DNA of 64,000 bases from Lachnospiraceae bacterium (lineage in GTDB: Archaea; Thermoplasmatota; Thermoplasmata; Methanomassiliicoccales; Methanomethylophilaceae): the NCBI GenBank assembly GCA_963645865.1, contig CAVIUM010000001.1, forward strand, positions 35,858 to 99,857, in the 5' to 3' direction. The notes under the pieces were generated by a model. That model worked only from the letters and a program-made list of their open reading frames with translations, ran no database searches and had not been told where the DNA came from. Below, in pieces: positions 9,817 through 60,904 of this stretch; the stretch's first letter is position 1; every line of letters begins with the position of its first letter. The translations under genes and the position numbers were made by a program.

Positions 9817-11094
9817 ATGGTGACGGCCACGAGGTTCTTCGAACAATCCGCCGAGTTGAACGGCGGCATCGTGAAGAACGGCCTGTGCTCCATATGCAAG
9901 GGCGCCCACCGCCTGTGCGGGAAGGACCGCTGCCCCCTGATGGTCAAATTCTATTCGCAACAGAAGTCGCGCCCGCTCATCGACGCCACCGAGCTGGCGG
10001 GGTCCAGTCCCCCCGCGGTCTTCGTCGGCAGGTACGGGTATCCCAAGGTGGACATCGGACCGCTCCTGCCGCCGGAGTTCGGGGACACCTCCCTCATGGG
10101 CACCCCGGAGAGATGGGTCGGGAGGTCCATCGACGAGATCGTCGACTTCAGATTCAGGCTGGTCCGCGGGAAGTTCAGGATCGACGCCACCGACTTCAGG
10201 AAGAGCGGGAAGATCGTGGACGGGGTGCAGGAGCTGGCGCTGTCGGAGCGTCCCGTGGATACCGAGGCATCCTTCACCCAGAAGCCCAAGGGACGCGTCG
10301 TGTTGGACGATGACATCGAGCCCTTCGGTCCGTCCGCGAGGATGGAGAAGATGTCCACGGGCAACAGCAGGTTCGAGAGGAACCTGGAGAAGAGCTTCTA
10401 CGACACCGACATGAAGGCGACCGACGCCGTCGTCTCCGCCTACAGGAACGGCACCCTGATCTCCGAGATCCAGAAGGCGTTCTCCGTCGGCACCATGGGG
10501 ATGGGGAGGAACCGTCGCTTCGTCCCCACGAGATGGAGCATCACCGCCGTGGACGACATCATCGGGAAGGACCTGCTGAAGACCACCAAGTGGAACCCCA
10601 CTATCGACGATTTCCGCCTCTACCAATGGACGGAGCTGGACAACAGGTGGGCGATCCTGCTGATGCCCTGCACCTGGAGGTTCGAGCTCATCGAGGCGTG
10701 GTATCCGAACACCACCTGGAACCCATCGGGCAGGACGATAGACATCATCCACGACAGCGAGTTCTTCGACGGCAGGACCGAGTACGCCCACATCGGGGGA
10801 TGCTACTACGCCTCCAGGATGGCGGTGAACGAGCTCCTGATCGAGGAGGGGAGGACCGCGGGAGCGGTAATAATGCGCGAGGCCCATCCCGGGTACATCA
10901 TGCCCGTCGGCGTATGGAACGTCAGGGAGAACGTCCGTGCGGCACTGAAGACGGAACCGACCCACTACGAGACCCTGGATGCCGCATTGGACCGGGTGGA
11001 GAAGATGATGGACATCCGCAGGGACGGATGGATCGCCAATTCCGACGTCATGCGGGATTGGCTCGTTCAGAGGAGGATCGAGGACTATTACCGA
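9817..11094 (+). CDS. nreA: Nre family archaeal DNA repair protein (CGA-terminated)
   Basis: N-terminal CxxCKG..LCG..RCP, GSSPP.VFVGRYGYPKV, PTRWSITAVD, GGCYYA and PVGVWNVRE. C-terminal PIP-like QRRIEDYY is followed directly by CGA 11092-11094; the standard-code ORF continues to 11694. Confidence 0.92.
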
Positions 11095-11101
11095 CACGAC
11101 A

Positions 11102-11872
11102 TTGGGGGAGTTCACCGGGGAGAGGCTCGAGTGGGACGGGCCCTTCAAGGTAGTCGAATGCTCCCGCGCCCTGGCCCCTTCCGGGCTGCCGGAGATGGAT
11201 TACGCCCTCAATCCCTACGGAGGATGCGAGCACGGCTGCATCTACTGCTACGCGCCCGGGCACACCCATTCCGACCTCTCGACCTGGAGGGTCGTCAAGG
11301 TCAAGCGCAACATAGCCGACCGTCTGCTGAAGGAGCTCCCGTTCACCGAGGGGACGATAGGGATCGGATCGGTCACCGATCCGTATCAGGGGGCGGAGAG
11401 GAGGTTCCTCCTCACCAGGAGGTGCCTGGAGATCCTCTCCTCCAAGGGGAGGTCCGTCCATATCCACACCAAATCCGATCTGATCCTGAGGGACCTGGAC
11501 ATCCTGACGGGGATGGACTGCGTGGTAGGGATGACGATCACCAACACGGACGACCGCGTCTCGAAGATCACCGAGCCCGGCGCCCCCCTGCCGGAGGCCC
11601 GCCTACAGGCGCTGGCGGAACTCGTCGATTCCGGCATCAGGACGTATGCGCTCGTCGCCCCCATCATGTCCACCCTGGAAGGCCGCGAGGCTGAGCTCGC
11701 AGATGCGCTCAGATCCGCAGGCATACGGACCGTCTTCCACGACCATCTCAACCTCAGGCTGGTCGATCCGTCGAGGCTCGAGAGGATGGGCATCGGTCCG
11801 TCCCCGAAGGCCGAGAGGGAGTTCCTGGAGCAGTGCCTGCTCAGGGGCCTGGACACCGTCTCCGACCACCGA
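11102..11872 (+). CDS. Radical SAM protein, SplB/spore-photoproduct-lyase-like
   Basis: NPYGGCEHGCIYCYA (CxxxCxxC), SVTDPYQ and HTKS. TTG start. Ends CAC CGA CCG CGA TGA (first CGA 11870-72; TGA 11879-81). Confidence 0.88.
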
Positions 11873-11973
11873 CCGCGATGACAGCTGGGTACTCTGGCCG
11901 TGGCGATGGTAGAATAGAATTGTTTTTATAGAAGAACTAAATTGTCGTACTCAAACTACAGGTGATAATTACC

Positions 11974-13599: not shown

Positions 13600-13635
13600 T
13601 CCCAGTAACGAGCGGGGGACCGCTCGAATGAAACA

Positions 13636-13673: not shown

Positions 13674-13689
13674 CACATTCTGTTCGGTA

Positions 13690-14109
13690 TCGGGCGTCGA
13701 AGAACGCGGCCAACGAGGATGCCGTGTGCTTCGCATCCTCGATGACATCGTGGAGCTCCACTCCGATCTCCGATGGGATACCGTGATTGTAATCCCATCC
13801 GATGACCGCGTAGTCCGGATTCATCCAGTATTCGACGAAAGGCGGGACCTTGTTAAAGTACGAGGTATCGCCGGGCACATCGAGAACTGGATAACCAGAA
13901 TCGTTGTACTGCAGTTCAGCGGAGATCCTGTCGAAATCCATATTCCTCATCACGATGTAGGCGCAGAACCACCCCTGCCTCCCTTCGTATATCTGACTGC
14001 CTGCAGGGATGCACAGGGACACGAAGCGCACGACGATCTCTACATCGATATCGTCGTTCAGGTGCAACATCTCGGTGTGAATTGTCTTGTCGTCCTCCTC
14101 GAACCACAT
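13690..14109 (-). CDS. Hypothetical protein, about 139 aa (CGA-terminated)
   Basis: MWFEEDD...GWFCAY...LDVPGDTSY...IGWDYNH...AAFFDA, then CGA TAC CGA. In the standard code it is buried in a 752 aa ORF that runs antisense through the whole thermosome gene. Confidence 0.7.
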
Positions 14110-14263: not shown

Positions 14264-15052
14264 ATGCGCGCTGCGCTTTACGCCAGGGTATCGACGGATG
14301 ATCAGGCAGTCGAAGGCTTCTCCTTGGATGCCCAGTTCAAACGTCTGGAGGCCTACTGCAGGGTCCGCGGCTGGGAGGTGGCCGGGGAGTACAGGGACGA
14401 GGGTTATTCCGGAAGGAACACCCGCCGTCCGGAGTACGACCGCATGATGCGCGAATCCGATTCCTGGGATGTGCTTTTGGTCCTGAAGATGGACCGTATC
14501 CACAGGAACAGCGTCAATTTCACCCGCATGATGGACGACCTCCGCGGGAAAGGCAAGGAGTTCAACTCGGTTCAGGAGAAGTTCGATACGACCACTGCGA
14601 TGGGACGCTTCGTCATGGATATCATGCAGAGGATCGCCCAGCTCGAGAGCGAGCAGATCGGCGAGAGGACGTTCATGGGGATGGAGTTCAAGGCCCGCAA
14701 CGGCACCGGGAACCTCGGTTCCGGGCATCCCTACGGCTACACGTATTCCGACGGTCGTCTCGAAGTGGTCGAGGACGAGGCCTACGCCGTCCGCGCGATA
14801 TACAACATGTATCTCCGCGGCTCCACCATGGGAGGCATCGCCGACTTCCTGAACGATGCGGACATCCCCGCGAAAAAGGGCGGCAGATGGAACAAGCAGT
14901 CCGTCTGCAACATCCTCCACAACCCCCTCTATGTGGGATACTCCGATTGGAACGGCATCCTCCGCAAGGGCGAACAGGAGCCCATCGTCGAGATGGAGAA
15001 GTTCGAGAAGGTCAACGGTCCGCTGTTCAAGGACGGGACATGCGCGCAGCGA
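14264..15052 (+). CDS. Serine recombinase (resolvase plus recombinase domain), copy 1
   Basis: ALYARVSTDDQ, DEGYSG..RP, KMDRIHRN, E.E.I.ER, PYGY and ILHNPLYVG. First in-frame CGA 15050-52; TGA 15059-61. Confidence 0.92.
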
Positions 15053-15897
15053 TCTACGTGAGGGTCTCCACCGAGGAGCAGGCCGCGGAAGGTTATTCGA
15101 TCGACGCGCAGAAGGAGCTCCTGCAGGATTACTGCCTGGTGGAGGGATGGGACGTCGCCGGCGTCTACGAGGACGACGGTTTCTCCGGGAGGAACGACAA
15201 GCGTCCCGCCTATCGCAGGATGATGGCCGAGATGGATTCGTGGGATCTGATCCTCGTGATCAAGATGGACCGTATCCACAGGAACAGCCGCAATTTCATG
15301 AACATGATGGAGGTCCTCGACAGGCACGGGAAGATGTTCGTCTCCCAATCCGAATCGCTGGATACGACCAACGCCCTCGGGAGGTTCGTCGTCGACATGA
15401 TCCAGCGTCTGGCGCAGCTGGAGAGCGAGCAGATCGGCGAGAGGACCCACATGGGTATGCGCGAGAAGGCCGAGACGCTCGACAACGCCACCGAAGGGAA
15501 GAGGACCATGGGATTCACCCCTCCGTTCGGCTACAGGCTGGAGGACGGGGCTTTGAAGGAGGATGAGGACGAGCTTCCCGTGGTGAAGAGGATGTTCGAC
15601 GAATATGCCGAAGGACGCACCGTCGACGAGATCTGCTGGTCCCTCAACCGCGAGGGCATCCTGACCCGCAGGGGGAATCCATGGAACAAGCGCAACATGT
15701 CCACCATCCTCCACAACCCGGTCTATGCGGGATTCATGAGGTGGGAGGATGTGCTGATAAGGCACCCGGCGGCGGTGGCCGTGACGTCGGAGGAATTCAA
15801 CGCCGTACAGGAACTGATGGCGTCCAGAGTGCGCGATCCGGCCAAGAGGAACGTCAAGCTCCTGCCCACGGTCTCCGACTTCGTTTCGGAATCTTGA
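15040..15897 (+). CDS. Serine recombinase (resolvase plus recombinase domain), copy 2
   Basis: MRAAIYVRVSTEEQ, DDGFSG, KMDRIHRN, PPFGY and ILHNPVYAG; overlaps the end of copy 1. Confidence 0.92.
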   Translation: MRAAIYVRVSTEEQAAEGYSIDAQKELLQDYCLVEGWDVAGVYEDDGFSGRNDKRPAYRRMMAEMDSWDLILVIKMDRIHRNSRNFMNMMEVLDRHGKMFVSQSESLDTTNALGRFVVDMIQRLAQLESEQIGERTHMGMREKAETLDNATEGKRTMGFTPPFGYRLEDGALKEDEDELPVVKRMFDEYAEGRTVDEICWSLNREGILTRRGNPWNKRNMSTILHNPVYAGFMRWEDVLIRHPAAVAVTSEEFNAVQELMASRVRDPAKRNVKLLPTVSDFVSES

Positions 15898-16066
15898 CCA
15901 TTGGAATATAAACCTTGTTCATAACAGGCATTCAGGTTCCATAGCATTCATGCTACCGCGATTCGACGTCTGGCCTATGTCCGTAATGCCCGATTTTGGC
16001 AATATCATTATATATCGAATAACGCGAATCGTTGGATGGGTCTTAGGGCCCATTGGAGGAAAACGA

Positions 16067-16597
16067 ATGACTGACGAATGCAAACCCATAGACCCGACCG
16101 CGTTCGGGCTTTTCTTCGTCGCCCTGGTATCATTGCCCATCGCTCTGGTGTGCATCTTCTCTTACGCAGGCGTCGACAACGACATAGGCACAGGTTACAA
16201 CCTGGGCGGTCTCCTGATGCTTGCTGCGATTTTCATCGCCATCGCCGCCATGAAAGCCTACAAGGCAGGCAGCAACTTCGGATTCATCGTGTTCGGCATG
16301 GTCGCTCTCGGAGTGTTCTACGCCGGTGCGGTCGGAGGAGATCTCTATGTCAACCTCACCCTGGGCATAATGTATCTCATCGCCCTGGTCTGGTCCTTCC
16401 GCGCGAAGAACCTCAAGACCCTCACGACCATCCTGCTCACCACCGCCCTGATCTTCATCTTCGGTGGACTTGCGGTCAACGACGGTAGTGCGGACAGCAT
16501 CTGGATGCTCCTGAAGGGAATCGCCGCCCTGGCCAACTTCGTGCTCACCCTGTACCTGGCTTTCGCCCTGGCCGACGAGCACGTCCCCTGCTACTGA
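16067..16597 (+). CDS. Six-TM membrane protein, possibly GPR1/FUN34/YaaH (SatP)-like
   Basis: Hydrophobic 176 aa. DPTAFGLF resembles the NPAPLGL family motif. GGAGG RBS upstream. Confidence 0.55.
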   Translation: MTDECKPIDPTAFGLFFVALVSLPIALVCIFSYAGVDNDIGTGYNLGGLLMLAAIFIAIAAMKAYKAGSNFGFIVFGMVALGVFYAGAVGGDLYVNLTLGIMYLIALVWSFRAKNLKTLTTILLTTALIFIFGGLAVNDGSADSIWMLLKGIAALANFVLTLYLAFALADEHVPCY

Positions 16598-16697
16598 GCG
16601 GGGATCGAAATCAATTACCCGCTCCGGCGGGGTTTCTTCCTACCAACATTGTCCCTCACTCATGGACTTTAAATACGAGTCGTAAGATGACCTCGGT

Positions 16698-16796
16698 ATG
16701 AAGACTGAGGTCAAGAAGAAGGTCCTCGCTTACGGAATGGTCGGCATCATGATCGTTGTCGCCGTCACCGCGGCAGCCGCTGCTCTCATAAAGTGA
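16698..16796 (+). CDS. Small 32 aa single-TM peptide
   Basis: MKTEVKKKVLAYGMVGIMIVVAVTAAAAALIK*; TTTAAATA box about 25 nt upstream; stop ends 1 nt before the SDR start. Confidence 0.6.
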   Translation: MKTEVKKKVLAYGMVGIMIVVAVTAAAAALIK

Positions 16797-16797
16797 G

Positions 16798-17559
16798 ATG
16801 ATGACGATAGCCGTTGTCACTGGCGCCTCCTCCGGCATGGGTGCGGAATTCTGCAGAGCGCTCGACGGCTACGGACTGGATTCCATCTGGATCATCGCAC
16901 GCAGGGACGACAAGCTCAGAGAGCTCGCTTCCGAGCTTGAAACACCTTGCAAAACCCTCTCCATCGATCTTTCCGATGCCACTGGCATCGATTCCCTCGC
17001 ATCCATCATCGAGAGCGAGGAGCCCGAGATCCGCTATCTGGTCAACTGCGCCGGTATCGGGAGATTCGGAAACTCTTGGGAGATCCCCGTTTCCGAGACC
17101 AGGGCGATGATAGGTCTCGACGTATCCGCATTGGTGGAGATCACCAACCTGTGCATCCCGTACATGCCTCCTGGGTCGGATATCATCGAGGTCTGCTCGG
17201 CGTCCGCATATCTCCCGCTGGAGAAGCTGAACGTTTACTCGGCATGCAAAGCGTTCGTGCGCTCCTACTGCAACGGTCTCCGCAGCGAATTGGCGTCCAA
17301 GAGGATCGGAGTTCTCGAGGTCTCCCCCGGTTGGGTGGAGACGGATTTCATCCCGCTCTCCCAGGGAGACAATGCGGTTCCGCAGAAGGTGTTCAAGCAT
17401 ACCGTCACCAAGGAGGCCGTGGTCGCTCAGGCCATGAAGGACATGTCCAATGGCCGCAGCCGTTCCATCTGCGGCGGGTACAACAGATTCCAGGTCTTCT
17501 GCTGCATCCACTTCCCTTCGATGGCTTCTTTCATCTGGAGGAACTCTTTGAAACAGTGA
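16798..17559 (+). CDS. Short-chain dehydrogenase/reductase
   Basis: TGASSGMG, ARR, LVNCAG, YSACK (YxxxK) and PGWVET. Confidence 0.92.
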   Translation: MMTIAVVTGASSGMGAEFCRALDGYGLDSIWIIARRDDKLRELASELETPCKTLSIDLSDATGIDSLASIIESEEPEIRYLVNCAGIGRFGNSWEIPVSETRAMIGLDVSALVEITNLCIPYMPPGSDIIEVCSASAYLPLEKLNVYSACKAFVRSYCNGLRSELASKRIGVLEVSPGWVETDFIPLSQGDNAVPQKVFKHTVTKEAVVAQAMKDMSNGRSRSICGGYNRFQVFCCIHFPSMASFIWRNSLKQ

Positions 17560-17571
17560 GAATGTGGCCGT

Positions 17572-18777
17572 ATGTCCGATTTCGAGCTGATGCACAAGGA
17601 TCTGGGCGTATGCACCGTATCCATTGATGAAAGTGGATCCATCCGCTCCGTCCGCGACATCACCGCCTCGGATCATCTCCCAGTAGGGACATATCCATCC
17701 ATCGAATCCGATCTCACCAAAGGTCTGAACTCCTGGTGGAGTCGCAGGTCCATCCCTGCTAGCAGGGACAATCTGCAGCCGTTCCTGTCCCAGTGTGGCC
17801 TCGAAACATCATCCGCTCTCATGACTGCAACCCGTGGTCTGAGTCTTTCCGATTGTTACTGGTTGCGTCCTGTCGCTTCTGATCTTCGCTGGGACGACGT
17901 CAACTACTACGACAACGATTTCTCCGAGGATCTGGGGTTGATTCTCTTCGGAGAAGATGTCGCAGGGGACATCTCTCTGAAAACACCGGATGCCTCGTCT
18001 GACGGTCGTCTCAGGAAGCGTTGGTCCATCATGGACGGATCCAGGTATCTCATCAAGGCCGGAAGTCCACCTTTCCATCAGGAACCTTACAACGAGACGA
18101 TAGCTTCGGAGATTATGAGACGTCTGGGCATCGAAGGTGTGGATTATCGCATCAATGGCTCTGGCAAGCAGCCCGTTTCTGTTTGCAAGGACTTCACAGA
18201 TCCTGACAACGAATTGGTATCAGCTTCGGCCATCGACAGAATAATGCAACGTTCCGGCGGAACGAACTACGAGCACTCGGTCCGTTGCTTCCGTGAAGCA
18301 GGAATGGAGGATCCGGAAAGTTCCATAGACCGGATGCTCGTTTTGGATTTCATCGTGGCCAATGAGGATCGCCATTATGGGAACTTCGGACTTCTCAGGA
18401 ATCCAGACAGTCTGGAATGCACCGGATTCGCTCCCATCTATGACAGCGGTTCTTCCCTGGGTTACCGCACGATTGCCCCCCTCATCGACGAAGGCTATGA
18501 CCTGAAATGCAAGTGCTTCAAAGAAGTCCTTTCGGAGCAGATTCGCCTCGTTCATTCATTCGATTGGTTGGATCTTTCCAAACTCGATGGTATCGAGGAT
18601 TTCATCCGTAAGACGTTCGAAGGTTCGAGATACATCGACGGTAGTCGCGCTGAAGCCATCGCAGCTTATACGCGCCGTCGTATCGATATGCTCGATAGGA
18701 TCTCATCCAATTATGCAGGATTCCATGACAGCCCTTCGACGGACTTCAAAGGTCACTATTATAATTTATTTATCTAA
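17572..18777 (+). CDS. HipA-like kinase domain protein
   Basis: SLSDCYW, DGRLRKRW, LIK, PYNE, ANEDRHYGNFG and APIYDSGSSL; lower GC3 than the flanks. Confidence 0.8.
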   Translation: MSDFELMHKDLGVCTVSIDESGSIRSVRDITASDHLPVGTYPSIESDLTKGLNSWWSRRSIPASRDNLQPFLSQCGLETSSALMTATRGLSLSDCYWLRPVASDLRWDDVNYYDNDFSEDLGLILFGEDVAGDISLKTPDASSDGRLRKRWSIMDGSRYLIKAGSPPFHQEPYNETIASEIMRRLGIEGVDYRINGSGKQPVSVCKDFTDPDNELVSASAIDRIMQRSGGTNYEHSVRCFREAGMEDPESSIDRMLVLDFIVANEDRHYGNFGLLRNPDSLECTGFAPIYDSGSSLGYRTIAPLIDEGYDLKCKCFKEVLSEQIRLVHSFDWLDLSKLDGIEDFIRKTFEGSRYIDGSRAEAIAAYTRRRIDMLDRISSNYAGFHDSPSTDFKGHYYNLFI

Positions 18778-18785
18778 TATCGCAT

Positions 18786-19850
18786 TTAGCTTTATTAATT
18801 TCAAGTCTACTTTCCAACACCAGTTTTCAGAAGATTTGAGGCTAGGTGATTAAGGAGTTGGTGCACCTATCGGGCGGGGACAGGTCATCACCGTGCTTCA
18901 CGACTCTGAGGCCTAGCCGCGCGCCCCACGGCCAGGATGTTTCTTGCCGAATTGACGTCCCGATCCATCACGAGCTCGCATTACGGGCATTCGAGGGTTC
19001 TGACGGAGAGGTCTTTAGCGACGAGGCACCCACATCCCGAGACAGATCATTTTGCTATCGTATTCGAGCATGTGGTGTCACGCGTATCTATGCGTGGAGG
19101 ATCCGAGTCATGATCCGAGAAGTACTTGCCTAGACGGTCATGATATCGCCGGACCTGAGCTCTCTTGAATCATAGGCTACCATCATGAGCATCCAGGTCA
19201 CGTTCTCTGAGCTGAGCATGATGGGCATCCTCGTCTTATTACCCTGAACATTTTTGGCTATAATTAAAGTTGATAAGACGTAATTGTTACAACATAATTC
19301 CAATAGGAAATTCCATTCATGGCATTGATACGAAATTCAAATGAAAATGGGGGGAGAATTGGTCCAAATCCACAAAATCAAGTACACATTCGGGAGGCCG
19401 TCGTGGACAAAACTACCCCTAAAAATTGAATAAAATTTGAGATTCAGTGGAATTTGTACATTTTTTCAAAAATCGCCGAATTTCGTGTCATTACCTTGTG
19501 CTTTTATCGAATTTCAACCTATTGATAATAAAATCTCTAATAACGATTTTAGCTTAATTAATTATCATATATCAGAATAAGCAGAGATTTTCATAAAAAT
19601 ACGTGAATTCTGTTAGACATAATGAATCACCGTAAATCATGCCTCTGATTTGCTTTTCTACCGTATTTTTGTCTTGAATTTATTTAGTTATTATAAATCA
19701 ACTAAATTACGTAATTAGCTAAATTAATTCAAGCTAATGCGAATCAATGCTTCTAGGGGGAATTCCCCTTTATTCATGGCATTATCTGAGACCTCATCTC
19801 GATATTCTTGATTAAATACGCTAATAAAACTATTAGCTTAATTAATCAAG
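18786..19850. repeat. Dispersed ~18 bp motif TTAGCTWWATTAAT(T)CAAG in AT-rich DNA
   Basis: Copies on + at 18786, 19549, 19715 and 19833; inverted copies near 19673 and 19807. Confidence 0.65.
18845..19040 (-). pseudogene. tnpB: IS200/IS605-family tnpB 3' remnant with probable right end
   Basis: Minus strand reads SGCGCLVAKDLSVRTLECP*CELVMDRDVNSARNILAVG: zinc ribbon plus RuvC-III DRDxNAAxNI, with an internal TAA. The upstream part of the gene is missing. Confidence 0.8.
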
Positions 19851-19857
19851 TTCATCC

Positions 19858-21388: not shown

Positions 21389-22174
21389 TCGATGGGGGAA
21401 GTAGTGCAGAGTGCGGGTTTCCGGATACTGGGAGTTCAGGATGCACTTCGCATACATCGCTGTTATATACCTCCCCGTTCCGACAGAGTACTGGTCGTAG
21501 TTTTCGCGCTCTGAAGGGGTCATTTCACCCAGAAGCGTGCAGTCGAAATCGCACTCGTCGGAGATGTTCTGATTGAGCAGGATCTTGGAGATCTCGGAAC
21601 TCTCTATACTCTTGCCCGATCTTATACGGGTCACGGCGGAACAGATTTCCAGGGTGTTGTTTATGAATCTTTCCGTGCCCTCCATCCGATCGGGATCGTC
21701 CACGGGGATGTCGCTGAGACGCTCCATCGTCGTACGGACTCCGCGGAGGACGGTCGGATCCTCGCCGTTCAGGGAGAGATCGCCGGTGAGGCCCTCGGAA
21801 GCGAGTCCCGACGAGACCTTCAATAACGGAAGAGTGCGGATGAGCTTGCCCGTCATGAAAGAGAACCTGACCTCATCGGCCCTGTCGCGTTCGCTCAGGT
21901 CGGCGAAGTACCTCTTACCCATCCCTTCGGGCATGAACGTGATGCCGTCTCCGACGACGCGCATCTGGTTCTGGATGTTGCACAGCTCGTTGCGTCCCAG
22001 GGACGACATGAATTTGGCGAGGCCGATCTGACGGGTGATCTCGTCCACCCAGTGATAGCGCTCGAAATCGTCCATGTCGGGATCGAAGGTGTATCTGGCG
22101 ATCTCGCAGCCTTTGCGCATGATGATGCGTCCGAGCACCGTCACATCGTCCCCGCTGAAGATCATCCGTTGCAC
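21389..22174 (-). CDS. Hypothetical protein (CGA-terminated)
   Basis: Long ORF co-oriented with its neighbours. In-frame CGA at 21389-91 after LHYFPH; standard-code end at 21320. Confidence 0.65.
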
Positions 22175-24694: not shown

Positions 24695-25570
24695 TCGGGA
24701 CCGGTCGGACGCGGATGCGCCGATCCCGATCTCCATGGCGCGGATCAGGTGCTTCTCGGCCTCCTCGATCCTCCCCACCTTCATCAGGGCGCCTGCCAGG
24801 TCGTGGTGCAGCGACATGAGGGATTCGGTGTCCGGGAGGGTGTGGTTCTCCAGGAGCCCTTCGAGTATCCCCACGGCGGCCGTGAGGTCCGCGACCGCGT
24901 TGTCGAGCATCCCGAGGTCGGATTCCCCGCTGGCGCGCATGGCGAGGGCGAGCACGATCTGATCGGTGTCCTCCAGGGTTCCGTTCTCCAGCAGGGAGGA
25001 TCCGATCTCGATGGCCTCTGAATATCTGGACACGGAGCCGCGGACGTCGTTCATCAGGTCGTCCGCTTCGGCGGCGATGTTGCACAGCTCGAGACGGCGG
25101 TTCTGCGACCAGGGATCCATCGCCTCCGTCTCCGACAGGCCCTTCATGATGAACGCGTAGGCGTCGTCCGGATGCTCGGAATCGATGAGCTCCCCTGCTG
25201 CGGTCATGCACATCCTGACCACCGCGCGGCGGTCGTAGCGGAATGAGCGGGGTCCGAAAGCGTCCAGGCGGGTGATGGCGACGGAATACTCCTCGATGGG
25301 GTCCCCTCCCTGCTCGTAGATCAGCGATGCGATCTCGCAGTGGATCTTAACGAAGGTGCCGGGATCCACGGAGTCGAGGGAATCGGCGATCTCCGCCGCC
25401 GATGTCAGATCGTCGAGGGCGGATGTCCTGTAGCCCATCATCGCCAGCACGCATCCGCGGTTGAGATAGGCCTCCGTGAGCGCCTCCCTGTCGTCTCCCG
25501 ACTCCAGGGCGTTGACCCTGCCGTTGAGCTCCTCGAGCGATGCCTCCAAGTGGGAATCCGCCTTCTCCAT
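24695..25570 (-). CDS. TPR protein (CGA-terminated)
   Basis: TPR segments (AYLNRGCVLAMMG, HHDLAGALMKVGRIEEAEKHL); in-frame CGA at 24695-97. Confidence 0.72.
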
Positions 25571-25621: not shown

Positions 25622-26968
25622 ATGAACCATGAGAGGATCCTTGCGGTCCATGACATCTCCTGCGTCGGCAGGTGCTCGCTCACCGTCGCGCTGCCCATCA
25701 TCTCCGCCGTCGGAATCGAATGCTCCGGACTGCCGACGGCCGTTCTGTCCACCCACACGGGCGGATTCAAGGGATTCACGTACCGCGACCTCACCGAGGA
25801 CATGGTGCCCATCGACGAGCACTGGCAGACCCTGGACATAAAGTTCGATGCGTTCTACACCGGGTTCCTGGGCTCCTTCGAGCAGATCGACATCGTCTCC
25901 AAGCTCTTCGACGACCTCTCCCACGACGGGACGACCATCTACGTCGACCCGGTCATGGCCGACGAGGGGAAGCTGTACGGAGTCTTCGGGCCCGATTTCC
26001 CTGCGGGGATGAGGAGGCTCTGCGAGAAGGCCGACGTCATCATGCCGAATCTGACCGAGCTGTGCCTCATGCTCGGCATCGAGTGGAAGCCCGGCCCGTA
26101 CACCCATGAATACATCGATTCCATGCTGGACCGTGCGAAGGAGTTCGGCGTCAAGCGCATCGTTCTCACCGGCATCAGCTTCGAGAAGGGGCTGCTCGGC
26201 GCCGTTTACAAGGACTTCGAAACCGGCGAGACCGGTGAAGTGATGAGGCCAGAGATCCCCGGATACTACCACGGCACCGGGGACGTGTTCAGCTCGGCAC
26301 TGGTAGGCGCATGCGAGTCCGGCGTGTCCCTCGCCAAGGCCGTCGAGGCGGCCATCAATCTGACCGTTTCGAGCATCAAGCGCACCTACGAGTCCGGTGA
26401 GGACATCAGGTACGGTGTCAACTTCGAGATCGGCCTCGCGGATTACATCAGGGAGGTCTCCGAGGGGAGGACGGGATTCACCATGCTCCCCGCGGCCAAC
26501 GACGAGGAGCTCAGGATCATCGCATCCATGGGTTTCACCGTCTGGAACGAGGCCTACGACGGCATCGTCCCCCAGGACCAGATCTACTACATGCTGAAGA
26601 AGTACCAGTCCTTCGAGGCCCTGAAGGAGCAGATCTCCCACGGATACACCTATCTGATGCTCAGGGACGGCTCCACGCCCGCCGGATACTGCGGATACGC
26701 CCCCGAGGAAGACTGCCTGTTCCTCTCCAAGGCGTACATCCTGAAGGAGTTCAGGCACCACGGCTACTTCTCGAAGATAGTCGCCCACCTGAAGGACGTC
26801 GCCGTCCAGCTGGGGAAGGACCGCATCAGGCTCACCGTCAACAGGGATAACGCCAACGCCGTCGCCGCCTACCAGCACGAGGGGTTCGAGACCGTCAAGG
26901 TCCAGGACGTCCCCATTGGCGACGGGTTCGTCATGAACGACTTCGTGATGGAGCTGAAGGTCCAGCGA
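25622..26968 (+). CDS. pdxK: Pyridoxal/pyridoxamine kinase fused to a GNAT acetyltransferase (CGA-terminated)
   Basis: HDISCVGRCSL, LSTHTG, DPVMAD, PNLTE and GTGDVF, then a GNAT domain (LSKAYI, LTVNRDN, YQHEGF, MNDFVME). CGA 26966-68 overlaps the next ATG. Confidence 0.88.
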
Positions 26969-28659: not shown

Positions 28660-29323
28660 ACTCTCCGCCCTGCTGACCGGGGCATGCTCCCCCTATGTGG
28701 ATTCCGTCAAGGCCGATTATGTCCGCAAGAAGGACTTCTACTACGCCTGGGGCATCAGGAACGGGGTCGCCACATTGCAGATATCCGATTACCTCCAAGG
28801 CGCATCCGACGATGTACTCGCCGATTTCGGCGTCATGATCGTCAGGAGGGCCAAGAACATGTCATGGGAGGAGCCCCAATCCCTCCTGGACTTCGTCTCC
28901 GCGGACGACTTCATCCTCTCCAGGCGCCCGATTTTCATTCGCAGGAGCAAGAACCTGCTCCGCACCGACAGGGGCGAGCACGCCTTCCTCCCCGATTCCG
29001 TGGAGAGGCTGATCGATTCCGGACTGCTCCGTCCGTCCGATATCGACAATTCATGGTTCTCCTGGACCCGCAGGGACAACCTCAGGCGCGTGGGGTTCTG
29101 CGCCACCATGTTCCGCGTGGTGGGGATATCCTCGGTGCTCGACTCCCCCGACATCCCCGATGAGGTCCTGGACTACGTGGTGTACCACGAATGCCTCCAT
29201 CTGAGGCAGGGCTACCGTCCTTCGCACAGGGTCCATGACGCCGAGTTCCGCGCTTGGGAGCGCTCCTATCCCGGCTGGGAGGATTGCGAGAAGGTCCTCC
29301 GCTCCCTGTCGCTCTCCGTCCGA
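28649..29323 (+). CDS. SprT/YgjP-like zinc metallopeptidase
   Basis: ISSVLD.PDIP..VLDYVVYHECLH...H..EF. In-frame CGA at 29321-23; TGA at 29339-41. Confidence 0.8.
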
Positions 29324-29356
29324 GGAGGATATCTACCATGACCCCATCGGGGTCTC

Positions 29357-32892: not shown

Positions 32893-32980
32893 AAAGTGAA
32901 TGTGCAAAAACCTGCTTCATTCTAAGAAAGTGAATGTGCAAAAACCTGCTTCATTCTAAGAAAGTGAATGTGCAAAAACC
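32893..32980. repeat. Tandem direct repeat, 34 bp unit, about 2.6 copies
   Basis: aaagtgaatgtgcaaaaacctgcttcattctaag at 32893 and 32927, partial at 32961; no spacers. Confidence 0.9.
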
Positions 32981-33048: not shown

Positions 33049-34008
33049 TCGCTCGCGCGATATCCTCGCCAGGAAATCAACCGCCTCGGGGCTTCCGATC
33101 TCCGCGGCAAGCTTCGCCAGGCCGACGCCCCTGCTCTCGTTGAGCTCCACTCCTTCGCCGTTGTAATAGAGCATCCCGAGCATGAATATCGCCAGGGGAT
33201 CCCAGGAAAGAGCGGCGTTAGAGAACAGGTCGTGGGCCTTGTTGTAGTTCATCGGCACCCCGGTCCCCGAATAATACATCATTCCGAGGGTGAGCATCGC
33301 ATCGGGGTCGCGGCGTTCCACGGATGCCGTGAGCATCTTCGCGGCGAGTTCCGGATCGCGTTCGACCCCTTCGCCGTGCAGATACCTCAGACCGACGAGG
33401 TACAGCGCATGGGGGTCGCCCTTGCTCGCGGCCTCGGTGTACCACTTCATCGCCATCATCGCATCGGCTTCGACGCCCTGCCCGTTCTCGTACATCCTGC
33501 CGAGGTTGAACATGGCGTCCATGTTGCCCTGTTCGGCCGACAGGGAGAACATGCGGAATGCCTCCGCCGGATCCTTGCGGACGCCCCATCCGTTGAAGTA
33601 GAGGATCCCGAGGTTGCATTGGGCGGCGGCGTGGCCCTTGTCAGCCGCCAGCATGTACCATTTGGCGGCCTCCATCTTATTGACGGCGATGCCCTCGCCC
33701 TTGTCGCACATGTATCCGAGTCCGTATTGAGCCTCGACGTATCCCTGGTTAGCGGATTTGCGGTACCATTGGATGGCATCCATCTTGTCCATCGGGACTC
33801 CGATACCGTAGCAGCGGAAGTAGCCGAAGGTGTACTGGGCTGCCGGGACTCCGGCGTTGGCGGCGACTCCGATGAAGGCGACGGCCTGCACGAGATCGCG
33901 TTCGACGCCGTCCCCTTCATAGTACTTCTTTCCGAGGAGGTACTGGGCCTCGGCATCCCCGCGCTCGCTCCTCGCGGTCAATTCCAAGACAGAAGGGTCG
34001 TCCGTCAT
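33049..34008 (-). CDS. Sel1-repeat protein (CGA-terminated)
   Basis: About 8 Sel1 repeats; CGA at 33049-51 right after the last helix (EAVDFLARISRE). An alternative TTG start lies at 34047. Confidence 0.9.
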
Positions 34009-41966: not shown

Positions 41967-41969
41967 AGA

Positions 41970-51348: not shown

Positions 51349-52325
51349 TGTTCAAGAGAGAGGACGGGAGCCCGGACCTGGTGAAGGTCCTGGGTGCCTT
51401 CATGGTCATCACGGCCATGTACATACTCATCGATTCGCTGAGGACCTACTTGGGATTCTTCCAGCTCCTGATGAGCCCCTACGTCCTATCGACCCTCATC
51501 TCGCCGGTCATCACCCTCCTCTTCGGGATCGCCATCCTGGTGCCCAACGATCGCACGGTCCGCACCAACGGGTCCCTGGCCGGAATCGCCCTGGGCGCGT
51601 CGTTCATGTCCAGGAACATCGGGTTCATGGAATACTACGGCGCGGACGTCTCGTTCATCATATCCTACACATCCTTCCTCATCGGGATATTCGCGATAGT
51701 CTCCTCGACCGCCCTGCTGTTCGGATACTCGCACTATTCGGACAGGATCTGGCAGACCATGGGGATAATGTCCCTCATCGAGCTGTACCCGTTCTATGAC
51801 ATCTATGCCAGCTACCTGCCCCTGCTGGACTACATCCCCTACTTCTTCAGCAACATCCTGTTCATCGCATGCTACGGGATGCTCATCCTGCTCATGTTCG
51901 ACAAGAGCCTGAGGATCATCCCGGTCAACAAGCGCATCGACGGGGATCTGGGTACCGTCAAGGACATAATCTACTCCGGCGACGGCACATACATGGTCCC
52001 GGATGATGCGGATTCCCTGGTCCGCTTCGCCGGAGGCGACGGAGGGGAGAGGCTGGAGATCGTCCTCCACGACCGCAGGGAGACGAGGATGCTCAATCTC
52101 AGGAGGCCCCAGGGTTCCGAGAACCCGATCGCCATGGTGGTCCCGACCAACGGAAGGAGCTTCATGAAGGGCTTCAGATTCGATGTCGTCGCATGCTGCC
52201 CTTCGGCCGAGAACGACAGGATCCGCATCTACGGACGCGACGGCCTGTTCGTCGACATACTGGTCCACGAGATACCCGAGGAGCCCAGGATCGCCGGGAG
52301 GATCCGCAGGAAGAAGAAGGTCCGA
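51345..52325 (+). CDS. Membrane protein with the same architecture as the upstream gene (CGA-terminated)
   Basis: ATGA overlap with the upstream stop; ends RIRRKKKV then CGA 52323-25. Confidence 0.7.
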
Positions 52326-52968: not shown

Positions 52969-54513
52969 ATGGGAGAAATCGGACGTTTCATCGACGGGAT
53001 GCCGTCGCTTCGCTTCAGGAACGGAAAGATCGCGGTGCACATCCCCCGGTACATCTCGGACGAGGATGCGCTGCTGGAAGTGGGATTGGAATGTCCGAAC
53101 GGCCGCAGAATCGTCGGCAGACTGCCGGAGAGCGGATTCCCCGGAACGAGCGAACCCGCCTCCGTCATCATAGACGGGATATCCCCTCTCGACGGGTTCT
53201 CGGTCCTGATAGACGGATGCGCGGTCTACGAATGCCCCCGCACCGATGCCCTGTACTTCGGTGCCGATGGCAGGCAGATCGGGGAACCCGACGGAATGAC
53301 AACCGCTGTCAGGAGACCTGGGTCCGGACCTGACATCGGAGATGCGATTTCCATCGCGCCTCTCGGCGATGCGGAAGCAGTGGTGTACGCCGCTCCCGCG
53401 CTCGAACGCAGGTTCGAGATCTCCAGGCCGTCTGTCCGGTTCAGGGACGGCGTCTCCTACCTCTACGTCGCCAGATACATCGGCGTCCCCGGTGACCTCT
53501 TCCTCGTATCCATAGCAGGGGATTTCGGCAGGATCGATCTGGGGAAGATGCCGTCGAAGTCTGCCGACGGGAAGCAGATCGCCTCCGGGACGGAATTCAG
53601 ACTATCCGATTACGGCATCACGGTCCTCGATTGGTTCGATGTGATGATCGACGGGCGCAAGGTCTTCTCGTTCCCCCAGCGCGATGTCCTCGTCTTCTCC
53701 GAGAGGGGCACCGTCACGGCATTCCCCCTCGACAAAGCTGTAGTCGTCTTCCTCGACGACGTCATCATCGAGAGCGACGGGGAGTGCCTGAAGGAATGTT
53801 CGCTTCCAAGCGGTATCCTCTATCGCCTCTACGAGGCCGAAGGGCCGATATCCTTCGGAACCAGCATCCCCGATTATTCGCCCGAGCCTGAGACGATCGA
53901 GCAAACCTGCGATCCCGTACCCGGACCTACGGTCATCGAGGAGGATACGGAAGAGGGTCCGAACATCCCCGGACCGGAGATCGAGGAGGTACCCCGGGAA
54001 CCCGATACCGATCCCTATCCGGAGGTCCCCTCGGGATCCTTCGTCCGTCTCACGCCGAGGATGGTGCTGAGGGAATCGGGGATACTCCGCAGGGTCGGCG
54101 TGCTCGTCCCCGAATACAGGCCTTCAACGGAGAATCCCGTCCTGACCGCCGTCGGGAACCGCGGGCGCATCGAGATCGGCCCCCTGCCCATGGGCAGATG
54201 GGCGTCGAAGGAGACCGTCGTCAGCATCCAGGCGTACGGCATCAATCCCCTGGAGACGTTCTCTCTGGAATTGGAAGGTAGGACGATATTCACCAGCCAG
54301 GGCACCAACATTCTGTTCTTCACCTCCGAGGGCACCAGGCTGACCACGCCCCGCGGAAGGATAATCGCGGTCCACCGCCCCGAACTGGAGCTCGGTGTCC
54401 GCGGTGCGGCGAGATGCAGGATCGTCTCCTCCGAGGAGCGCGGCGGACTGGTGTACGACGAGGTGGAGCTCGGGGCCAGGGGCACCGTCTACAACATGAA
54501 CGTCGAACGCCGA
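52969..54513 (+). CDS. Hypothetical protein with three internal repeats (CGA-terminated)
   Basis: 514 aa; three similar beta-rich units and a Pro/Glu linker; first in-frame CGA at 54511-13. Confidence 0.72.
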
Positions 54514-56026: not shown

Positions 56027-56032
56027 TTTCTC

Positions 56033-57757: not shown

Positions 57758-57759
57758 CC

Positions 57760-58191
57760 TCAGTCATCGTGACTGAAGGCTTCGAGCCTCCTCATGTCGG
57801 GCGGACCGTCGGGGGTGACCCCCGACGGTTCCCTGCATGACACATATCCGTCCTTCACGTAGTCCCTCCCATCGGAGCCGATGAAGCAGTCTCCCGCGAA
57901 TATGTGCCCGGGGTCCCCGACCTCCCCGTAGACGTCCTCCTCGATCCTGCAGAGCGATTCCGCCACCTGCGTTCCCAATGGCGTCAGGTCGAGGTCGATC
58001 CTCTTCCCCTTCTGCGTCGCCTCGATGAAACCCATGTCCACGAGGGTGTCGATCTTCTGACCCATGCGGGGGTTGGACGATATGGCCCTCGAGAGCGCTG
58101 TTTTGGACATCCTGCCCCTCATGTAGAGACACACCAGGATGCTGGTGTTGTGCTTGCCCTCGATCACATCGCTGATTCTCAGGAGCGTCAT
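57760..58191 (-). CDS. Winged-helix DNA-binding protein (HxlR/MarR-like)
   Basis: MSKTALSRAIS...IDTLVDMGFIE...LTPLG. Confidence 0.72.
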   Translation of the reverse strand: MTLLRISDVIEGKHNTSILVCLYMRGRMSKTALSRAISSNPRMGQKIDTLVDMGFIEATQKGKRIDLDLTPLGTQVAESLCRIEEDVYGEVGDPGHIFAGDCFIGSDGRDYVKDGYVSCREPSGVTPDGPPDMRRLEAFSHDD

Positions 58192-58296
58192 GAGGGTACG
58201 ACGAGATACTAATTATTAATACCTATACAATACCCTACCACTATAACAAACGAAGAGTACTGAAGCGACCCGCCCCGGGGACGGGCCGCTTCGCCC

Positions 58297-59490
58297 TCAC
58301 TGGGCGGGGGTTTCGGGCGCCTTGGCGGGGGCGTCGTCGTCGAAGGTGTTGTTGCCGGACATCATGTCCTCATAAAGCAGGAACAGCTCGCTCTGGGAGA
58401 GGCTGCGGTGCATCTGGCAGGAGGCCTTCCTCACCAGGACGAGGAGGTTCTCCGCATCGTTCCTGCTGATCTCGATGCCCATGTCGCTCAGAGCTGCGGT
58501 GATCGTGTTCCTGACGGAGTGCTTTCCGATGATGATGGACCTCTCCATGCCGACCTCTGCGGGGTCGTAGGGCTCGGTGACTGTCGGATCGTGGGCCAGT
58601 CCGTCCTCCTGTGCGAAGCACTTCGAACCGATGACGGGCTTGCCGGGATTGATGGCGATACCGGACGCCTTGGAGACGGATTCGGCGATGGTGTGCATCT
58701 TGGCGGTGTCGATACCGGTGTCCATGCCGAGCATGTGCTTGGAGACCATCACGACCTCCTCGAGCGGGGCGCATCCGGCCCTCTTACCGATACCCATGGC
58801 GGTGACGCGGGCGAACCTCGCACCGCTCTTGACGGCGGCGACGGTGTTGGCCGTGGCCATGCCGAAGTCGTTGCGAGCGATGATCTCCACATCGATCCCG
58901 GCGATCTGCCTGAGCATCCTTATGCGCTCGGAGCAGGTGAAAGGGTCCTCGATGCCGAGACTGTCGGCATATCCGAAGCGGTCGGCTCCGGCACCCTTGG
59001 CGACCTTCGCGAAATCGATCAGGAATCCGAGGTCTGCCCTGGATGCGTCCTCGGCGACGAAAGAGATGTACAGGCCGTGCTCGGCGGCGTAGGAGGTGGC
59101 CTCGTAAATCTTGTCGAGCACCCATTCCCTGTTCTTGTTGTACTTCTTGGTGATCAGAACGTCGGAGGCGGGGAGGGAGATCGAAACGGCGTCGACGTCG
59201 CACTCCAGACTGACGTTGATGTCCGCTATGTCCGCCCTGTTGCTGGACATGACGGAAGCTGCGAGACCCATGTTCGCGATGTGGCGGACCGCGGTCTTCT
59301 CCTCCGGACCGATCATGGGCATGCCCACCTCGATCTGGGGAACGCCCGCTTCGTTCAGGAGCTGAGCCATCCTGTATTTCTCAATGTTCGAGAACACGAC
59401 CCCCGCGGCCTGCTCCCCCGCGGAAAGCGTGGAATCGCATATGCATACAGGTGCGTTCAGCCGGTCGACTACCTCGTTCTTCGTCTTCAT
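58297..59490 (-). CDS. Homocitrate/isopropylmalate synthase-family protein with degenerate active site
   Basis: Fold motifs GEQ.AGV.F, IEVG, AEDASRAD, NDFGMATAN, EPYDP and IGKHS. DSTLSAGEQ and ARND replace the canonical DTTLRDGEQ and HxHND. Confidence 0.85.
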   Translation of the reverse strand: MKTKNEVVDRLNAPVCICDSTLSAGEQAAGVVFSNIEKYRMAQLLNEAGVPQIEVGMPMIGPEEKTAVRHIANMGLAASVMSSNRADIADINVSLECDVDAVSISLPASDVLITKKYNKNREWVLDKIYEATSYAAEHGLYISFVAEDASRADLGFLIDFAKVAKGAGADRFGYADSLGIEDPFTCSERIRMLRQIAGIDVEIIARNDFGMATANTVAAVKSGARFARVTAMGIGKRAGCAPLEEVVMVSKHMLGMDTGIDTAKMHTIAESVSKASGIAINPGKPVIGSKCFAQEDGLAHDPTVTEPYDPAEVGMERSIIIGKHSVRNTITAALSDMGIEISRNDAENLLVLVRKASCQMHRSLSQSELFLLYEDMMSGNNTFDDDAPAKAPETPAQ

Positions 59491-59860
59491 TTGCATCCCA
59501 TCCATCGGCCCGCCTTCGGAGACGGCCTCTGTGCTTCTCCGTATATATTCGCGCTATTTAAAGTTCGAATCGGGGTCAAAAAAAGACGATTGCAATCGGC
59601 ATCTCAACTCTAACACTTAACAAATAATATAGTTGAGTCTGAACGTGGTCGTATTTACAGTTCCTACAACGTGTGGTTCCAGAGACAGAATTGCCGAAAA
59701 GAAATACAAACGAAGTGACAGGGTCCGTATGTCCTGTCATGTTGGAACCAGTCGTATCGTATGAGGAATGGCGGGACGCCCGTTCCGTTCCGATGACCGA
59801 GATGAGCTCCGACAAAGAGGATTCGGACTCGCGCGATAACCAGCCTTCTCCGAGATCCCA

Positions 59861-60904
59861 TCGATCCATCCTGTATCTCAGGATCGCACCCATCCCGCCC
59901 AACGCGGCGAGGGACTTCCCCCCGTCATGCTGTCCGGAAACGACGATGACGTTGCCCTTCTGGGATTCGACCGCGCGCACCACATCGTCCAGATCCTGAT
60001 CCCTGACCTTCGAGTCGAGCAGCAGGAGAGTCTCCACAGCCCCCGACAGGGCGGCATCGCGCACCTCCGAGGTCCCGTACGTCCCGAGCCCGTTGGGCTT
60101 GGATATCTCGGACATCAGCTTCTCCACGGCCTCGATCTCCGTTCCGACGGCCGAATCCCTCAGGACATCGGCACCCATGCCCGCCTTGAGCAGCTCGTTG
60201 ATCCCGGCCATCCCGCACTGTCCCGTGTGGTAGACGTACATCTTCCCGAACAGATCCGGACGCATCCTCTTGAGGTCCTCGGACAGCGTCTCCTTCTCGA
60301 ATCCCGGGCCCAGGAGGACCAGCGGCATGTTGGGCTCCATCAGCGGTGCGAGCTTCTCCGCTATCTCGGCGTGGTACGAATCCGCCTGCGGCTTCTCCGC
60401 GTACTGCTTCCCGGACCTGCCGGAGCGGATGGTCACCACCTCCTTCAGGCCGTACTGCCTCAGGACCGCGACGGTCGCGTCGTCCTGGTCCAGGGACACG
60501 AACACGATCCTGGGCTTCTTGGAATCCGACACGGCCCTCCTGAGCCTCTCGAGCTGGGTCTCCCTCCAGTGCTCCTTGGAGATCGTCAGGGAATCCCCGT
60601 TCTCGAGGATCAGCGTGTGATGCTGTCCGATATCCTGCGGACCGGTCTCGATGGTTCCCAGGAGCTTCAGCCTGAGGTCGTCCTCCGAGAACTCGATCTT
60701 CTCCATGCGCACTCCGAGGGTCATCCTCTTCTTCTCCGCCCTCTCGGCGCGGAGCTTGTCGGCGGACTTCTCCTCGCGCCTGGTGGTGGAAGCTGTGACG
60801 AGATCCCCCACCTCGATGACGTTGTACAGGTGCCAGATGTCCTCATCGGTCTCTATGAGCACCTTTATCCCGCCGGACGAGGGATCCTCCCCGAGTATGC
60901 GCAT
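59861..60904 (-). CDS. pelA: Pelota ribosome rescue factor (CGA-terminated)
   Basis: EDIWHLYNVI..GD.V...TTR, GQHHTL, GPGFEK and LGGMGAILRYRMD followed by CGA 59861-63. Confidence 0.94.

Follow-up and report, generated by a model that had tools for sequence, protein, structure and literature searches.

In-frame CGA at gene ends in a genus of Methanomethylophilaceae: a probable, leaky terminator

Our study concerns the codon CGA in a 64,000-nucleotide stretch of archaeal DNA (the window, G000:C1:35858-99857), which comes from a genome of the family Methanomethylophilaceae assembled to 2.28 Mb in 218 contigs with a GC content of 0.60. From the letters of the window, an earlier note had proposed that CGA, an arginine codon in translation table 11, acts there as a stop. 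Our data show that CGA is the first stop-like codon at about one gene in six of this genome, and that the observation is real and not the product of chance, GC bias or assembly error. We think it probable that CGA in this genus is a working terminator, presumably a leaky one, which would be read by the release factor aRF1 in competition with an atypical tRNA-Arg(UCG) and would probably feed back on aRF1 itself. The earlier proposal is supported, with one amendment. Stop-like behaviour is borne out by the columns of orthologous genes, by a purge of CGA from gene interiors and by tails that run out of frame; the stop is not an exclusive one, because CGA occupies conserved arginines of aRF1 and of ribosomal protein L18e, where it must be decoded.

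CGA at gene ends and in gene interiors

Genes were called as segments of genome-trained codon log-odds in which CGA, TGA, TAA and TAG were scored neutral, the best of overlapping segments being kept. Real genes of this genome are strongly biased at the third codon position; the Nre-family gene of the window, for instance, has GC contents of 0.52/0.44/0.90 by codon position, and its composition reveals AGG as the chief arginine codon. The caller returned 2,102 segments genome-wide, with a scorable end in 2,001, where the first stop-like codon was TGA in 1,536, CGA in 362, TAA in 92 and TAG in 11. When the counts are limited to ends lying at most 4 codons from the end of the coding score, they become TGA 1,228, CGA 249, TAA 49 and TAG 7. 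TAG terminates genes genome-wide, if rarely, which corrects the earlier note, whose tally for the window had none. Segment interiors contain 104 in-frame TAG, and a tRNA-Pyl(CUA) is encoded at C36:6527-6597; this tRNA and the scarcity of terminal TAG fit the published use of TAG for pyrrolysine (Pyl), or its ambiguous use, in Methanomethylophilaceae.

CGA is nearly absent from gene interiors. Called segments hold 371 in-frame CGA in 653,754 codons; 241 of them are no more than ten codons away from a segment end, and 13 are flanked on both sides by coding score. Among out-of-frame triplets the share of CGA is 3.5%. Seven of the 13 are truly intragenic and lie in aRF1, in L18e, in a DUF3990-like gene, in an IS66 transposase (three) and in a group II intron reverse transcriptase (one). 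Three others resemble gene boundaries, marked by a Shine-Dalgarno-like motif and a start after the CGA or by the C-terminus of a universal stress protein, and one resembles a shadow frame. The remaining two are ambiguous same-frame junctions of neighbours, CfbC with CfbD (C155:3-2099) and GmhA with GmhB (C24:2890-3942); such pairs are either two genes divided by a CGA stop or real fusions with a linker arginine. The earlier note had found no internal CGA in the genes it checked by hand: near-absence extends to the whole genome, with the seven intragenic codons as exceptions. Mobile-element genes, the IS66 transposase on C206 and the group II intron reverse transcriptase on C179, hold four of these seven and may be recent arrivals or binning contaminants. 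CGA is also the last codon, directly before a standard stop, in 29 genes, which is far above what internal CGA use allows.

We expressed CGA use as an index, the share of CGA among CGN codons over the A-ending share in the seven other four-fold boxes. The index is 0.014-0.13 in seven genomes of the genus and 0.037, 0.044 and 0.335 in other genera of the family, and it reaches 0.37 (G024), 1.05 (G083) and 1.05 (G117) in outgroup families. Bias in GC content at third codon positions (GC3) was considered as the reason for the rarity of CGA and rejected, because the GC3-matched outgroup genome G117, at GC3 0.91, uses CGA at the expected rate. At internal conserved positions the codon is depleted, as expected of a sense codon that has become a stop.

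Comparison of orthologous gene ends points the same way. For the Nre-family gene, the alignment reaches the last residue in every relative; directly after it, 8 rows have CGA, 21 have TGA and 1 has TAA (30 rows, including an extra paralogue from five genomes). At 18 terminal-CGA sites with C-terminal alignment, the 46 aligned codons comprise CGA 19, TGA 17, TAA 1, CGG 1 and other sense codons 8, and the common arginine codons AGG and CGC account for none of the 46. The codons aligned to 143 terminal-TGA sites of this genome include TGA 182, TAA 26 and CGA 12. Since the aligned columns hold CGA, TGA and TAA without AGG or CGC, CGA swaps with stops and not with arginine codons. It thus stands at the stop positions of its orthologues, where congeners have TGA or TAA, in agreement with the earlier proposal. 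In samples of 40-100 kb per genome, the share of ends with CGA was 11/32 (G046), 9/67 (G013), 5/94 (G043) and 4/87 (G008) within the genus and 3/93 (G090) and 0/104 (G098) in other genera.

The earlier note had seen no shared flanking motif, and this needs correction, for a weak context exists: CGATG occurs at 27.5% of 247 terminal CGA, compared with TGATG at 6.7% of 1,218 terminal TGA. No flanking motif other than CGATG was found at terminal CGA, and the codon seems to be favoured at translationally coupled junctions. A standard stop lies at most 3 codons after 59 of 247 terminal CGA (23.9%) as against 122 of 1,217 terminal TGA (10.0%). This enrichment of back-up stops fits leaky termination with selected back-ups and, at some sites, fits a short extension equally well.

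The 13 CGA sites of the window

Within the window, CGA was present in the claimed frame and strand at each of the 13 sites reported earlier:

11092..11094, + strand: end of an Nre-family gene (9817-11091); next standard stop 200 codons on, within the next gene in another frame
11870..11872, + strand: near the end of a radical-SAM gene (11102-11869); TGA 3 codons later, weak alone
13690..13692, - strand: first in-frame CGA of a small gene of no assigned family; second CGA at 13624, 22 codons further
15050..15052, + strand: near the end of a serine recombinase gene starting at 14264; TGA at 15059, 3 codons later, ambiguous
21389..21391, - strand: end of a gene of no assigned family extending to 22174; next standard stop 23 codons on
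24695..24697, - strand: end of a TPR-repeat protein gene extending to 25588; next standard stop 23 codons on
26966..26968, + strand: end of a kinase-GNAT fusion gene; CGATG shared with the ATG of the next gene (26968)
29321..29323, + strand: near the end of a YgjP-like gene, in CGA GGA GGA (Shine-Dalgarno-like); TGA at 29339, 6 codons later, ambiguous
33049..33051, - strand: near the end of a Sel1-repeat gene extending to 34047; TAG at 32956, 31 codons on
52291..52293, - strand: end of an isochorismatase-family gene extending to 52959; next standard stop 39 codons on
52323..52325, + strand: end of a gene (51345-52322) of no Pfam family; next standard stop 78 codons on
54511..54513, + strand: end of a gene (52897/52987-54510) of no Pfam family; standard stop 310 codons on, through two downstream genes
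59861..59863, - strand: end of the gene (59864-61021) for Pelota, an aRF1 paralogue acting in ribosome rescue; standard stop 95 codons on

The caller found 56 coding segments touching the window, with TGA as first stop-like codon in 40, CGA in 13, TAA in 2 and TAG in 1. This agrees closely with the earlier tally (TGA 41, CGA 13, TAA 3, TAG 0). Eleven of the 13 earlier sites were recovered exactly; the caller differs at 13690, where it takes the CGA at 13624, and at 33049, where it takes the TAG at 32956, and one of its own 13 CGA ends falls outside the window, at -693. The long tails described earlier at the strong sites were also recovered, with distances from CGA to the next standard stop of 20-556 codons: at nine of the ten strong sites, they are 200, 556 (measured from the CGA at 13624), 23, 23, 20, 78, 39, 310 and 95 codons, the caller yielding no tail figure for 33049. 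At 11870, 15050 and 29321, for which a TGA within six codons had been noted, the stop is indeed 3, 3 and 6 codons away.

As the earlier note had said, the tails cross neighbouring genes, which they read out of frame. The tail of the Nre gene has a GC3 of 0.47 and 13 CGA, a composition that matches out-of-frame reading of the next gene. Pfam gave no family match in any tail beyond a terminal CGA of the window, and where a full-length family exists its domain stops one or two residues ahead of the CGA. In the Nre gene, Nre_C covers residues 317-424 (profile positions 3-110 of 110), with CGA at codon 426; in Pelota, eRF1_3 covers profile positions 3-106 of 106 and ends at residue 385, CGA being codon 387. 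The final TPR match of the TPR gene ends at residue 288 with CGA at codon 298, relatives showing CGA or CGA-TGA nearby, and the isochorismatase domain ends at residue 193 with CGA at codon 223 in a gene that is convergent with the one ending at 52323. A frameshift or indel at the Nre end was considered and rejected, as none of the three forward frames around 11092 has a standard stop nearby and relatives have TGA in the same column.

Orthologues of other sites vary in how closely they align. At 26966, the sequence is CAG CGA TG here, CAG TGA in L018 and CAG TAA in L021, and four more relatives stop one codon earlier (TGA in three, TAA in one). At 21389, L015 has CGA too, and L014 has TAA one codon later, past small indels. 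The gene at 13690, for which Pfam gives no match, has its next standard stop more than 550 codons away, and its nearest relative (L054) also has CGA in the same column. The orthologue ends of the radical-SAM gene align poorly. At 33049, the coding score of the caller runs past the CGA, and a second, out-of-frame CGA lies at 33053.

Some neighbouring features deserve mention in their own right. In the radical-SAM gene that follows the Nre gene (11080-11110), the N-terminus T-D-T-T-L-x-E/D-F is conserved, yet most relatives lack an ATG, GTG or TTG at the conserved position; the candidate start is an ATT 9 nt past a GGAGGA motif, and the relative L033 has ATG at that place. The CGA at 15050 overlaps the start of a second recombinase gene (ATG CGC GCA GCG ATC TAC GTG...). 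The first serine recombinase gene (14264-15059) and the second, which overlaps it from about 15037, adjoin a stretch of lower GC content (0.50 at 16-20 kb), and the region 14264-20000 is probably an integrated mobile element. The gene for the rescue factor Pelota is CGA-terminated here, and one relative has CGA at the end of aRF1 itself, where others have TGA.

The release factor, the tRNA and the CGA codons that are kept

The NIKS, GT- and YxCxxxF motifs of aRF1 are all intact, and in this family the residue four positions past NIKS is Met or Leu. An HMMER alignment places Met65 of this aRF1 opposite Arg68 of human eRF1. Two solved archaeal aRF1 chains (4af1 and 3agk) carry Arg at that position, as do families f3, f5 and f6; among 77 full-length sequences of the family it is Met in 74 and Leu in 3, and in a smaller family comparison Met in 13 of 15 and Leu in the others. 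Lind et al., 2017 computed that eRF1 rejects CGA, CAA and CAG by about 6 kcal/mol, that the NIKS loop is held by Arg68, and that an Arg68Ala substitution cuts the penalty for C at the first position to 1-2 kcal/mol. Reassignment of a sense codon to stop should leave its mark in the codon-reading region of the release factor, and such a change is present in 77 of 77 sequences, its effect being predicted from simulation. Among the options listed in the earlier note, acceptance of C at the first position by aRF1 is the one we favour, given the loss of the Arg68 equivalent and the lower first-position penalty that the simulation predicts. The loss of Arg68 and the eRF1 studies are leads, not proof.

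A tRNA-Arg(UCG), whose presence the earlier note had left to be checked, was found in this genome (on C131) and, by aragorn on candidate loci, in 29 of 29 genomes of the genus scanned; the divergent copies of G008, G015, G007 and G060, missed by BLAST and by pattern search, were recovered with a covariance model. A codon without assignment, such as AGA/AUA in Micrococcus or CGG in Mycoplasma capricolum, both products of codon capture, has no tRNA able to read it, and CGA here has one. The pure form of the earlier option of an unassigned codon resolved by rescue is therefore weakened, the tRNA being both present and conserved. Its anticodon arm is atypical in all 23 sequences of the genus that were compared. 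All 19 aligned sequences carry a non-Watson-Crick pair at 31.39 (A.A, C.A or U.C), so that the loop is widened and four regular pairs remain, although other positions of the stem have changed in a compensatory manner. In a subclade (4/4 genomes), C33 replaces the normally invariant U33 and is joined by a 27.43 mismatch. Outgroup tRNAs have an ordinary 5-bp stem (3/3 genomes); elsewhere in the family, outside the genus, the stem either has five pairs or carries a 27.43 mismatch.

The aRF1 gene of this genome itself contains a single in-frame CGA, at codon 78, for a conserved arginine. GCT CGA at codons 77-78 was found in all 30 genus genes first compared, and the pair, two adjacent rare codons, is invariant in 31 genus genes where neighbouring synonymous sites vary; 12 of 144 invariant four- or six-fold columns in these 31 genes use one codon throughout. 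At the scale of the family, none of 77 full-length public aRF1 genes is free of in-frame CGA, and 66 carry a single one. In genes of at least 80% identity, CGA is at codon 78 in 34 of 35 and at codon 11 in the remaining one; in 42 more distant genes it is at codon 25 (24), 123 (8), 78 (7), 11 (5) or 50 (3), with a few others. Most of these positions fall in the N-terminal third, a few being scattered at codons 213-327, and aRF1 genes of outgroup families have 0-5 CGA at scattered positions. A conserved early in-frame codon kept against codon bias is what release-factor autoregulation leads one to look for, and the aRF1 CGA is such a codon. Because a near-extinct codon is always retained in the gene of its suspected reader, we infer feedback: the aRF1 CGA, kept with turnover of its position, is probably a negative-feedback sensor. 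RNAalifold on 20 sequences at the aRF1 CGA gave a covariation term of -0.18 with a compensatory change in 1 of 34 predicted pairs, so that a structure is unsupported, and Rfam has no family at the aRF1 or L18e CGA.

Public records close to this aRF1 have such names as Candidatus Methanoprimaticola sp., Ca. Methanomethylophilaceae archaeon and uncultured Methanomassiliicoccales archaeon; together with the tRNA-Pyl, they mark the genome as that of a Pyl-using methanogen of the Methanomassiliicoccales. Other records (L313, L314, L323-L326 and L361) hold an archaeal aRF1 at 75-99% identity under the bacterial titles Bifidobacteriaceae, Ruminococcus, Lachnospiraceae, Dialister, Bacteroidaceae, Prevotella and Anaerovoracaceae, and look like mislabelled bins.

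The L18e gene (G000:C16:27585-27941, - strand, outside the window; loci L197-L237 compared) keeps its CGA within a motif around codon 30, ATC/GTC TGG CGA GAC AT, that is invariant though identity drops to 56%, and which from the comparison appears to be an old nucleotide-level constraint. We considered this CGA as a family-specific trait and rejected the idea, since it is conserved in all 10 outgroup genomes.

Competing explanations and what the codon would mean for the family

Our proposal for the mechanism is as follows. The single release factor aRF1 would read CGA as a near-cognate of UGA, the arginine that braces the NIKS loop having been replaced by Met or Leu family-wide. It would compete with a retained tRNA-Arg(UCG) whose arm is atypical, either by the 31.39 mismatch or by C33 together with the 27.43 mismatch. 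GC pressure (GC3 of about 0.86-0.9) and little use of TAG as a stop, TAG being able to encode Pyl, would favour the change from TGA to CGA at gene ends. The tRNA would have been retained since a few CGA, including those of L18e and aRF1, still need reading as arginine. More aRF1 would lead to more premature termination on its own mRNA, a logic like that of RF2 autoregulation. A bolder form of this idea, which we put forward tentatively and rate at somewhat under even odds, is that CGA may be a two-meaning codon throughout Methanomethylophilaceae: stop or arginine would be set by aRF1 lacking Arg68 against a deliberately weakened tRNA-Arg(UCG), the balance would be tuned by the single CGA of aRF1, and GC pressure would then have turned at least 1/6 of TGA stops into CGA in one genus.

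Several observations weigh against reading CGA as a terminator. All 30 genomes of the family and all 10 outgroup genomes carry CGA at codon 30 of L18e; as an essential and abundant protein, L18e must be translated through this codon, so that termination at CGA is not efficient in every context, and we found no context that distinguishes a CGA that is read from one that terminates. The tRNA-Arg(UCG) is conserved through compensatory changes and scores 55 bits as a normal tRNA, so decoding of CGA is possible. For about 44% of terminal CGA a standard stop comes at most 9 codons later, and there a short extension beginning with arginine is an alternative reading. The outgroup family f7 has Gln at the Arg68 position and normal CGA use, so the loss of Arg68 is not sufficient. 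The prediction for Arg68 comes from simulation of human eRF1 with Ala rather than Met, and a comparison of codon usage showed no clear purge of CAA, which relaxed reading of the first position should also affect. Finally, the counts are approximate since the caller is purpose-built, and the genomes compared share kinship and are no independent replicates.

The strongest competitor, which we nevertheless regard as unlikely, is that CGA is effectively unassigned or very slow, a poor tRNA stalling the ribosome and the chain being freed by rescue (Pelota/ABCE1 with peptidyl-tRNA hydrolysis, or drop-off) and not by aRF1. The atypical arm of all 23 genus tRNAs, the purge of CGA from interiors, the enrichment of back-up stops past terminal CGA and the existence of a Pelota gene in the genome would all be expected if this were so, and the exchange of CGA with TGA, its one-base neighbour, fits mutation equally under release by aRF1 and under rescue. 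However, stalling leaves unexplained both the in-frame CGA retained by every aRF1 gene and the family-wide loss of Arg68, and it would be a costly ending for one gene in six, as Pelota has no GGQ release motif. An always-arginine codon is less probable still. Here, losses of stops by TGA-to-CGA change would have been fixed by GC-biased mutation and drift, with extensions tolerated, degraded or cut by back-up stops; the presence of the tRNA, the arginines of aRF1 and L18e and the 44% of sites with a nearby stop agree with it. Against this, 71 of 247 terminal CGA have tails of at least 50 codons, many out of frame through neighbour genes, the CGA of the Nre end is conserved between species, AGG or CGC never appears at orthologous columns, and 29 genes have CGA before the stop as compared with about 7-13 internal CGA per roughly 650,000 codons. 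An ordinary arginine codon would not be so confined to gene ends.

Editing of mRNA from C to U would turn CGA into UGA, so that the ribosome meets a standard stop, and would account for the equivalence of CGA and TGA at gene ends and for the interior purge. The genome has one gene of the cytidine/dCMP deaminase family (PF00383), which is ordinary and uninformative. Editing would have to work with a flanking motif limited to CGATG, it would make premature stops of the conserved CGA of aRF1 and L18e unless those were spared, it accounts for neither the tRNA peculiarity nor the aRF1 substitution, and we know of no mRNA C-to-U editing in archaea; we judge it very improbable, and nothing in the pattern requires it. 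Finally, an artefact of assembly, binning or sequencing in which T is read as C, for which the 218 contigs of the assembly might speak, was among the options of the earlier note and is excluded because the same state recurs across many independently assembled genomes. It does so in a phylogenetically coherent manner (8 rows for Nre; codon 78 of aRF1 in 34/35 public records), and errors would not spare gene interiors. Termination by aRF1, leaky and in competition with the tRNA, is the explanation that we retain.

Parts of this picture have precedents. In vertebrate mitochondria AGA/AGG were reassigned from sense to stop, and as there, an arginine codon lost from coding use marks gene ends here; the organelles, however, have tiny genomes and reduced tRNA sets, whereas the present case is a 2.3-Mb free-living archaeal chromosome that kept the tRNA and in which the codon seemingly has two meanings. 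Bacterial RF2 (prfB) autoregulates through an early in-frame UGA, needing a +1 frameshift and a Shine-Dalgarno-like stimulator. The aRF1 gene likewise holds, early in frame, a codon that its product presumably reads, which would give negative feedback; full-length aRF1 would come by ordinary decoding by tRNA-Arg(UCG), and no stimulatory structure was found. Reassignment of UGA in trypanosomatids and ciliates combines a tRNA-Trp that has a 4-bp anticodon stem with an eRF1 mutation. The likeness lies in pairing an altered anticodon stem with a substitution close to the motifs by which eRF1/aRF1 reads codons, and the difference in direction, stop to sense there and sense to stop in the change proposed here. 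This UGA reassignment is treated in PMC13092985.

Yeast eRF1/eRF3 is reported to compete with the tRNA for CGA and to treat it as a stop to some degree, and detectable decoding as a stop is reported for one CGA placed at the end of a gene (Wada and Ito, 2018; PMC7379694). As described there, CGA is read by a release factor of the eukaryotic and archaeal type against a poorly decoding tRNA-Arg; it is a low-level error or rescue in an organism with the standard code, while here CGA, besides being purged from interiors, is the apparent normal end of a share of genes that varies between species from about 5 to 35%. The same archaeal family already has a changed set of stops, genetic code 34 (bioRxiv 10.1101/2024.09.30.615893), which assigns every TAG of Methanomethylophilus, Methanogranum, Methanoplasma and others to pyrrolysine, and the tRNA-Pyl and the 11 TAG among 2,001 ends described above are in keeping with it; that work concerns TAG, and 'CGA' is absent from the main text of the preprint. 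Melnykov (bioRxiv 10.64898/2026.04.02.715157) speculated on a CGA stop for two assemblies of hydrothermal-vent archaea that read CGG as Trp. There too, recognisable domains lack CGA and a possible stop function is brought up; the lineage and setting are others, GC is balanced, CGG is reassigned, a tRNA-UCG was not found and no gene-end evidence is given. In the present genus, by contrast, CGG is an ordinary arginine codon, a tRNA-Arg(UCG) exists, and the comparison covered orthologous stop columns. Code surveys of the Codetta type, as they are described, give no direct inference of stop codons. A search of main texts on CGA as a stop in archaea or Methanomassiliicoccales gave no description for this clade.

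Sense-to-stop reassignment is not established for any bacterial or archaeal chromosome, and our searches gave one speculative remark, on other archaea. If our reading is true, it would be the first sense-to-stop code change in archaea, and in any cellular (non-organelle) genome, with an identifiable enabling mutation, and it would add a new class of code change. A plausible path would also be laid out, from TAG lost as a stop through GC pressure and a relaxed release factor to a weakened tRNA. The family would offer a natural test of the published prediction that Arg68 of eRF1 enforces U at the first codon position, and the rule of one CGA in aRF1 suggests a new feedback circuit. Methanomethylophilaceae are the source of PylRS/tRNA pairs in wide use and have members in culture, which makes the idea of a CGA stop directly testable. 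For these gut methanogens, annotation with table 11 would create false C-terminal extensions, fusions and overlaps in about 5-35% of genes. If CGA terminates, foreign genes that use it as arginine, such as those for the IS66 transposase and the group II intron reverse transcriptase, would be truncated, and the code change may therefore act as a barrier to horizontal transfer.

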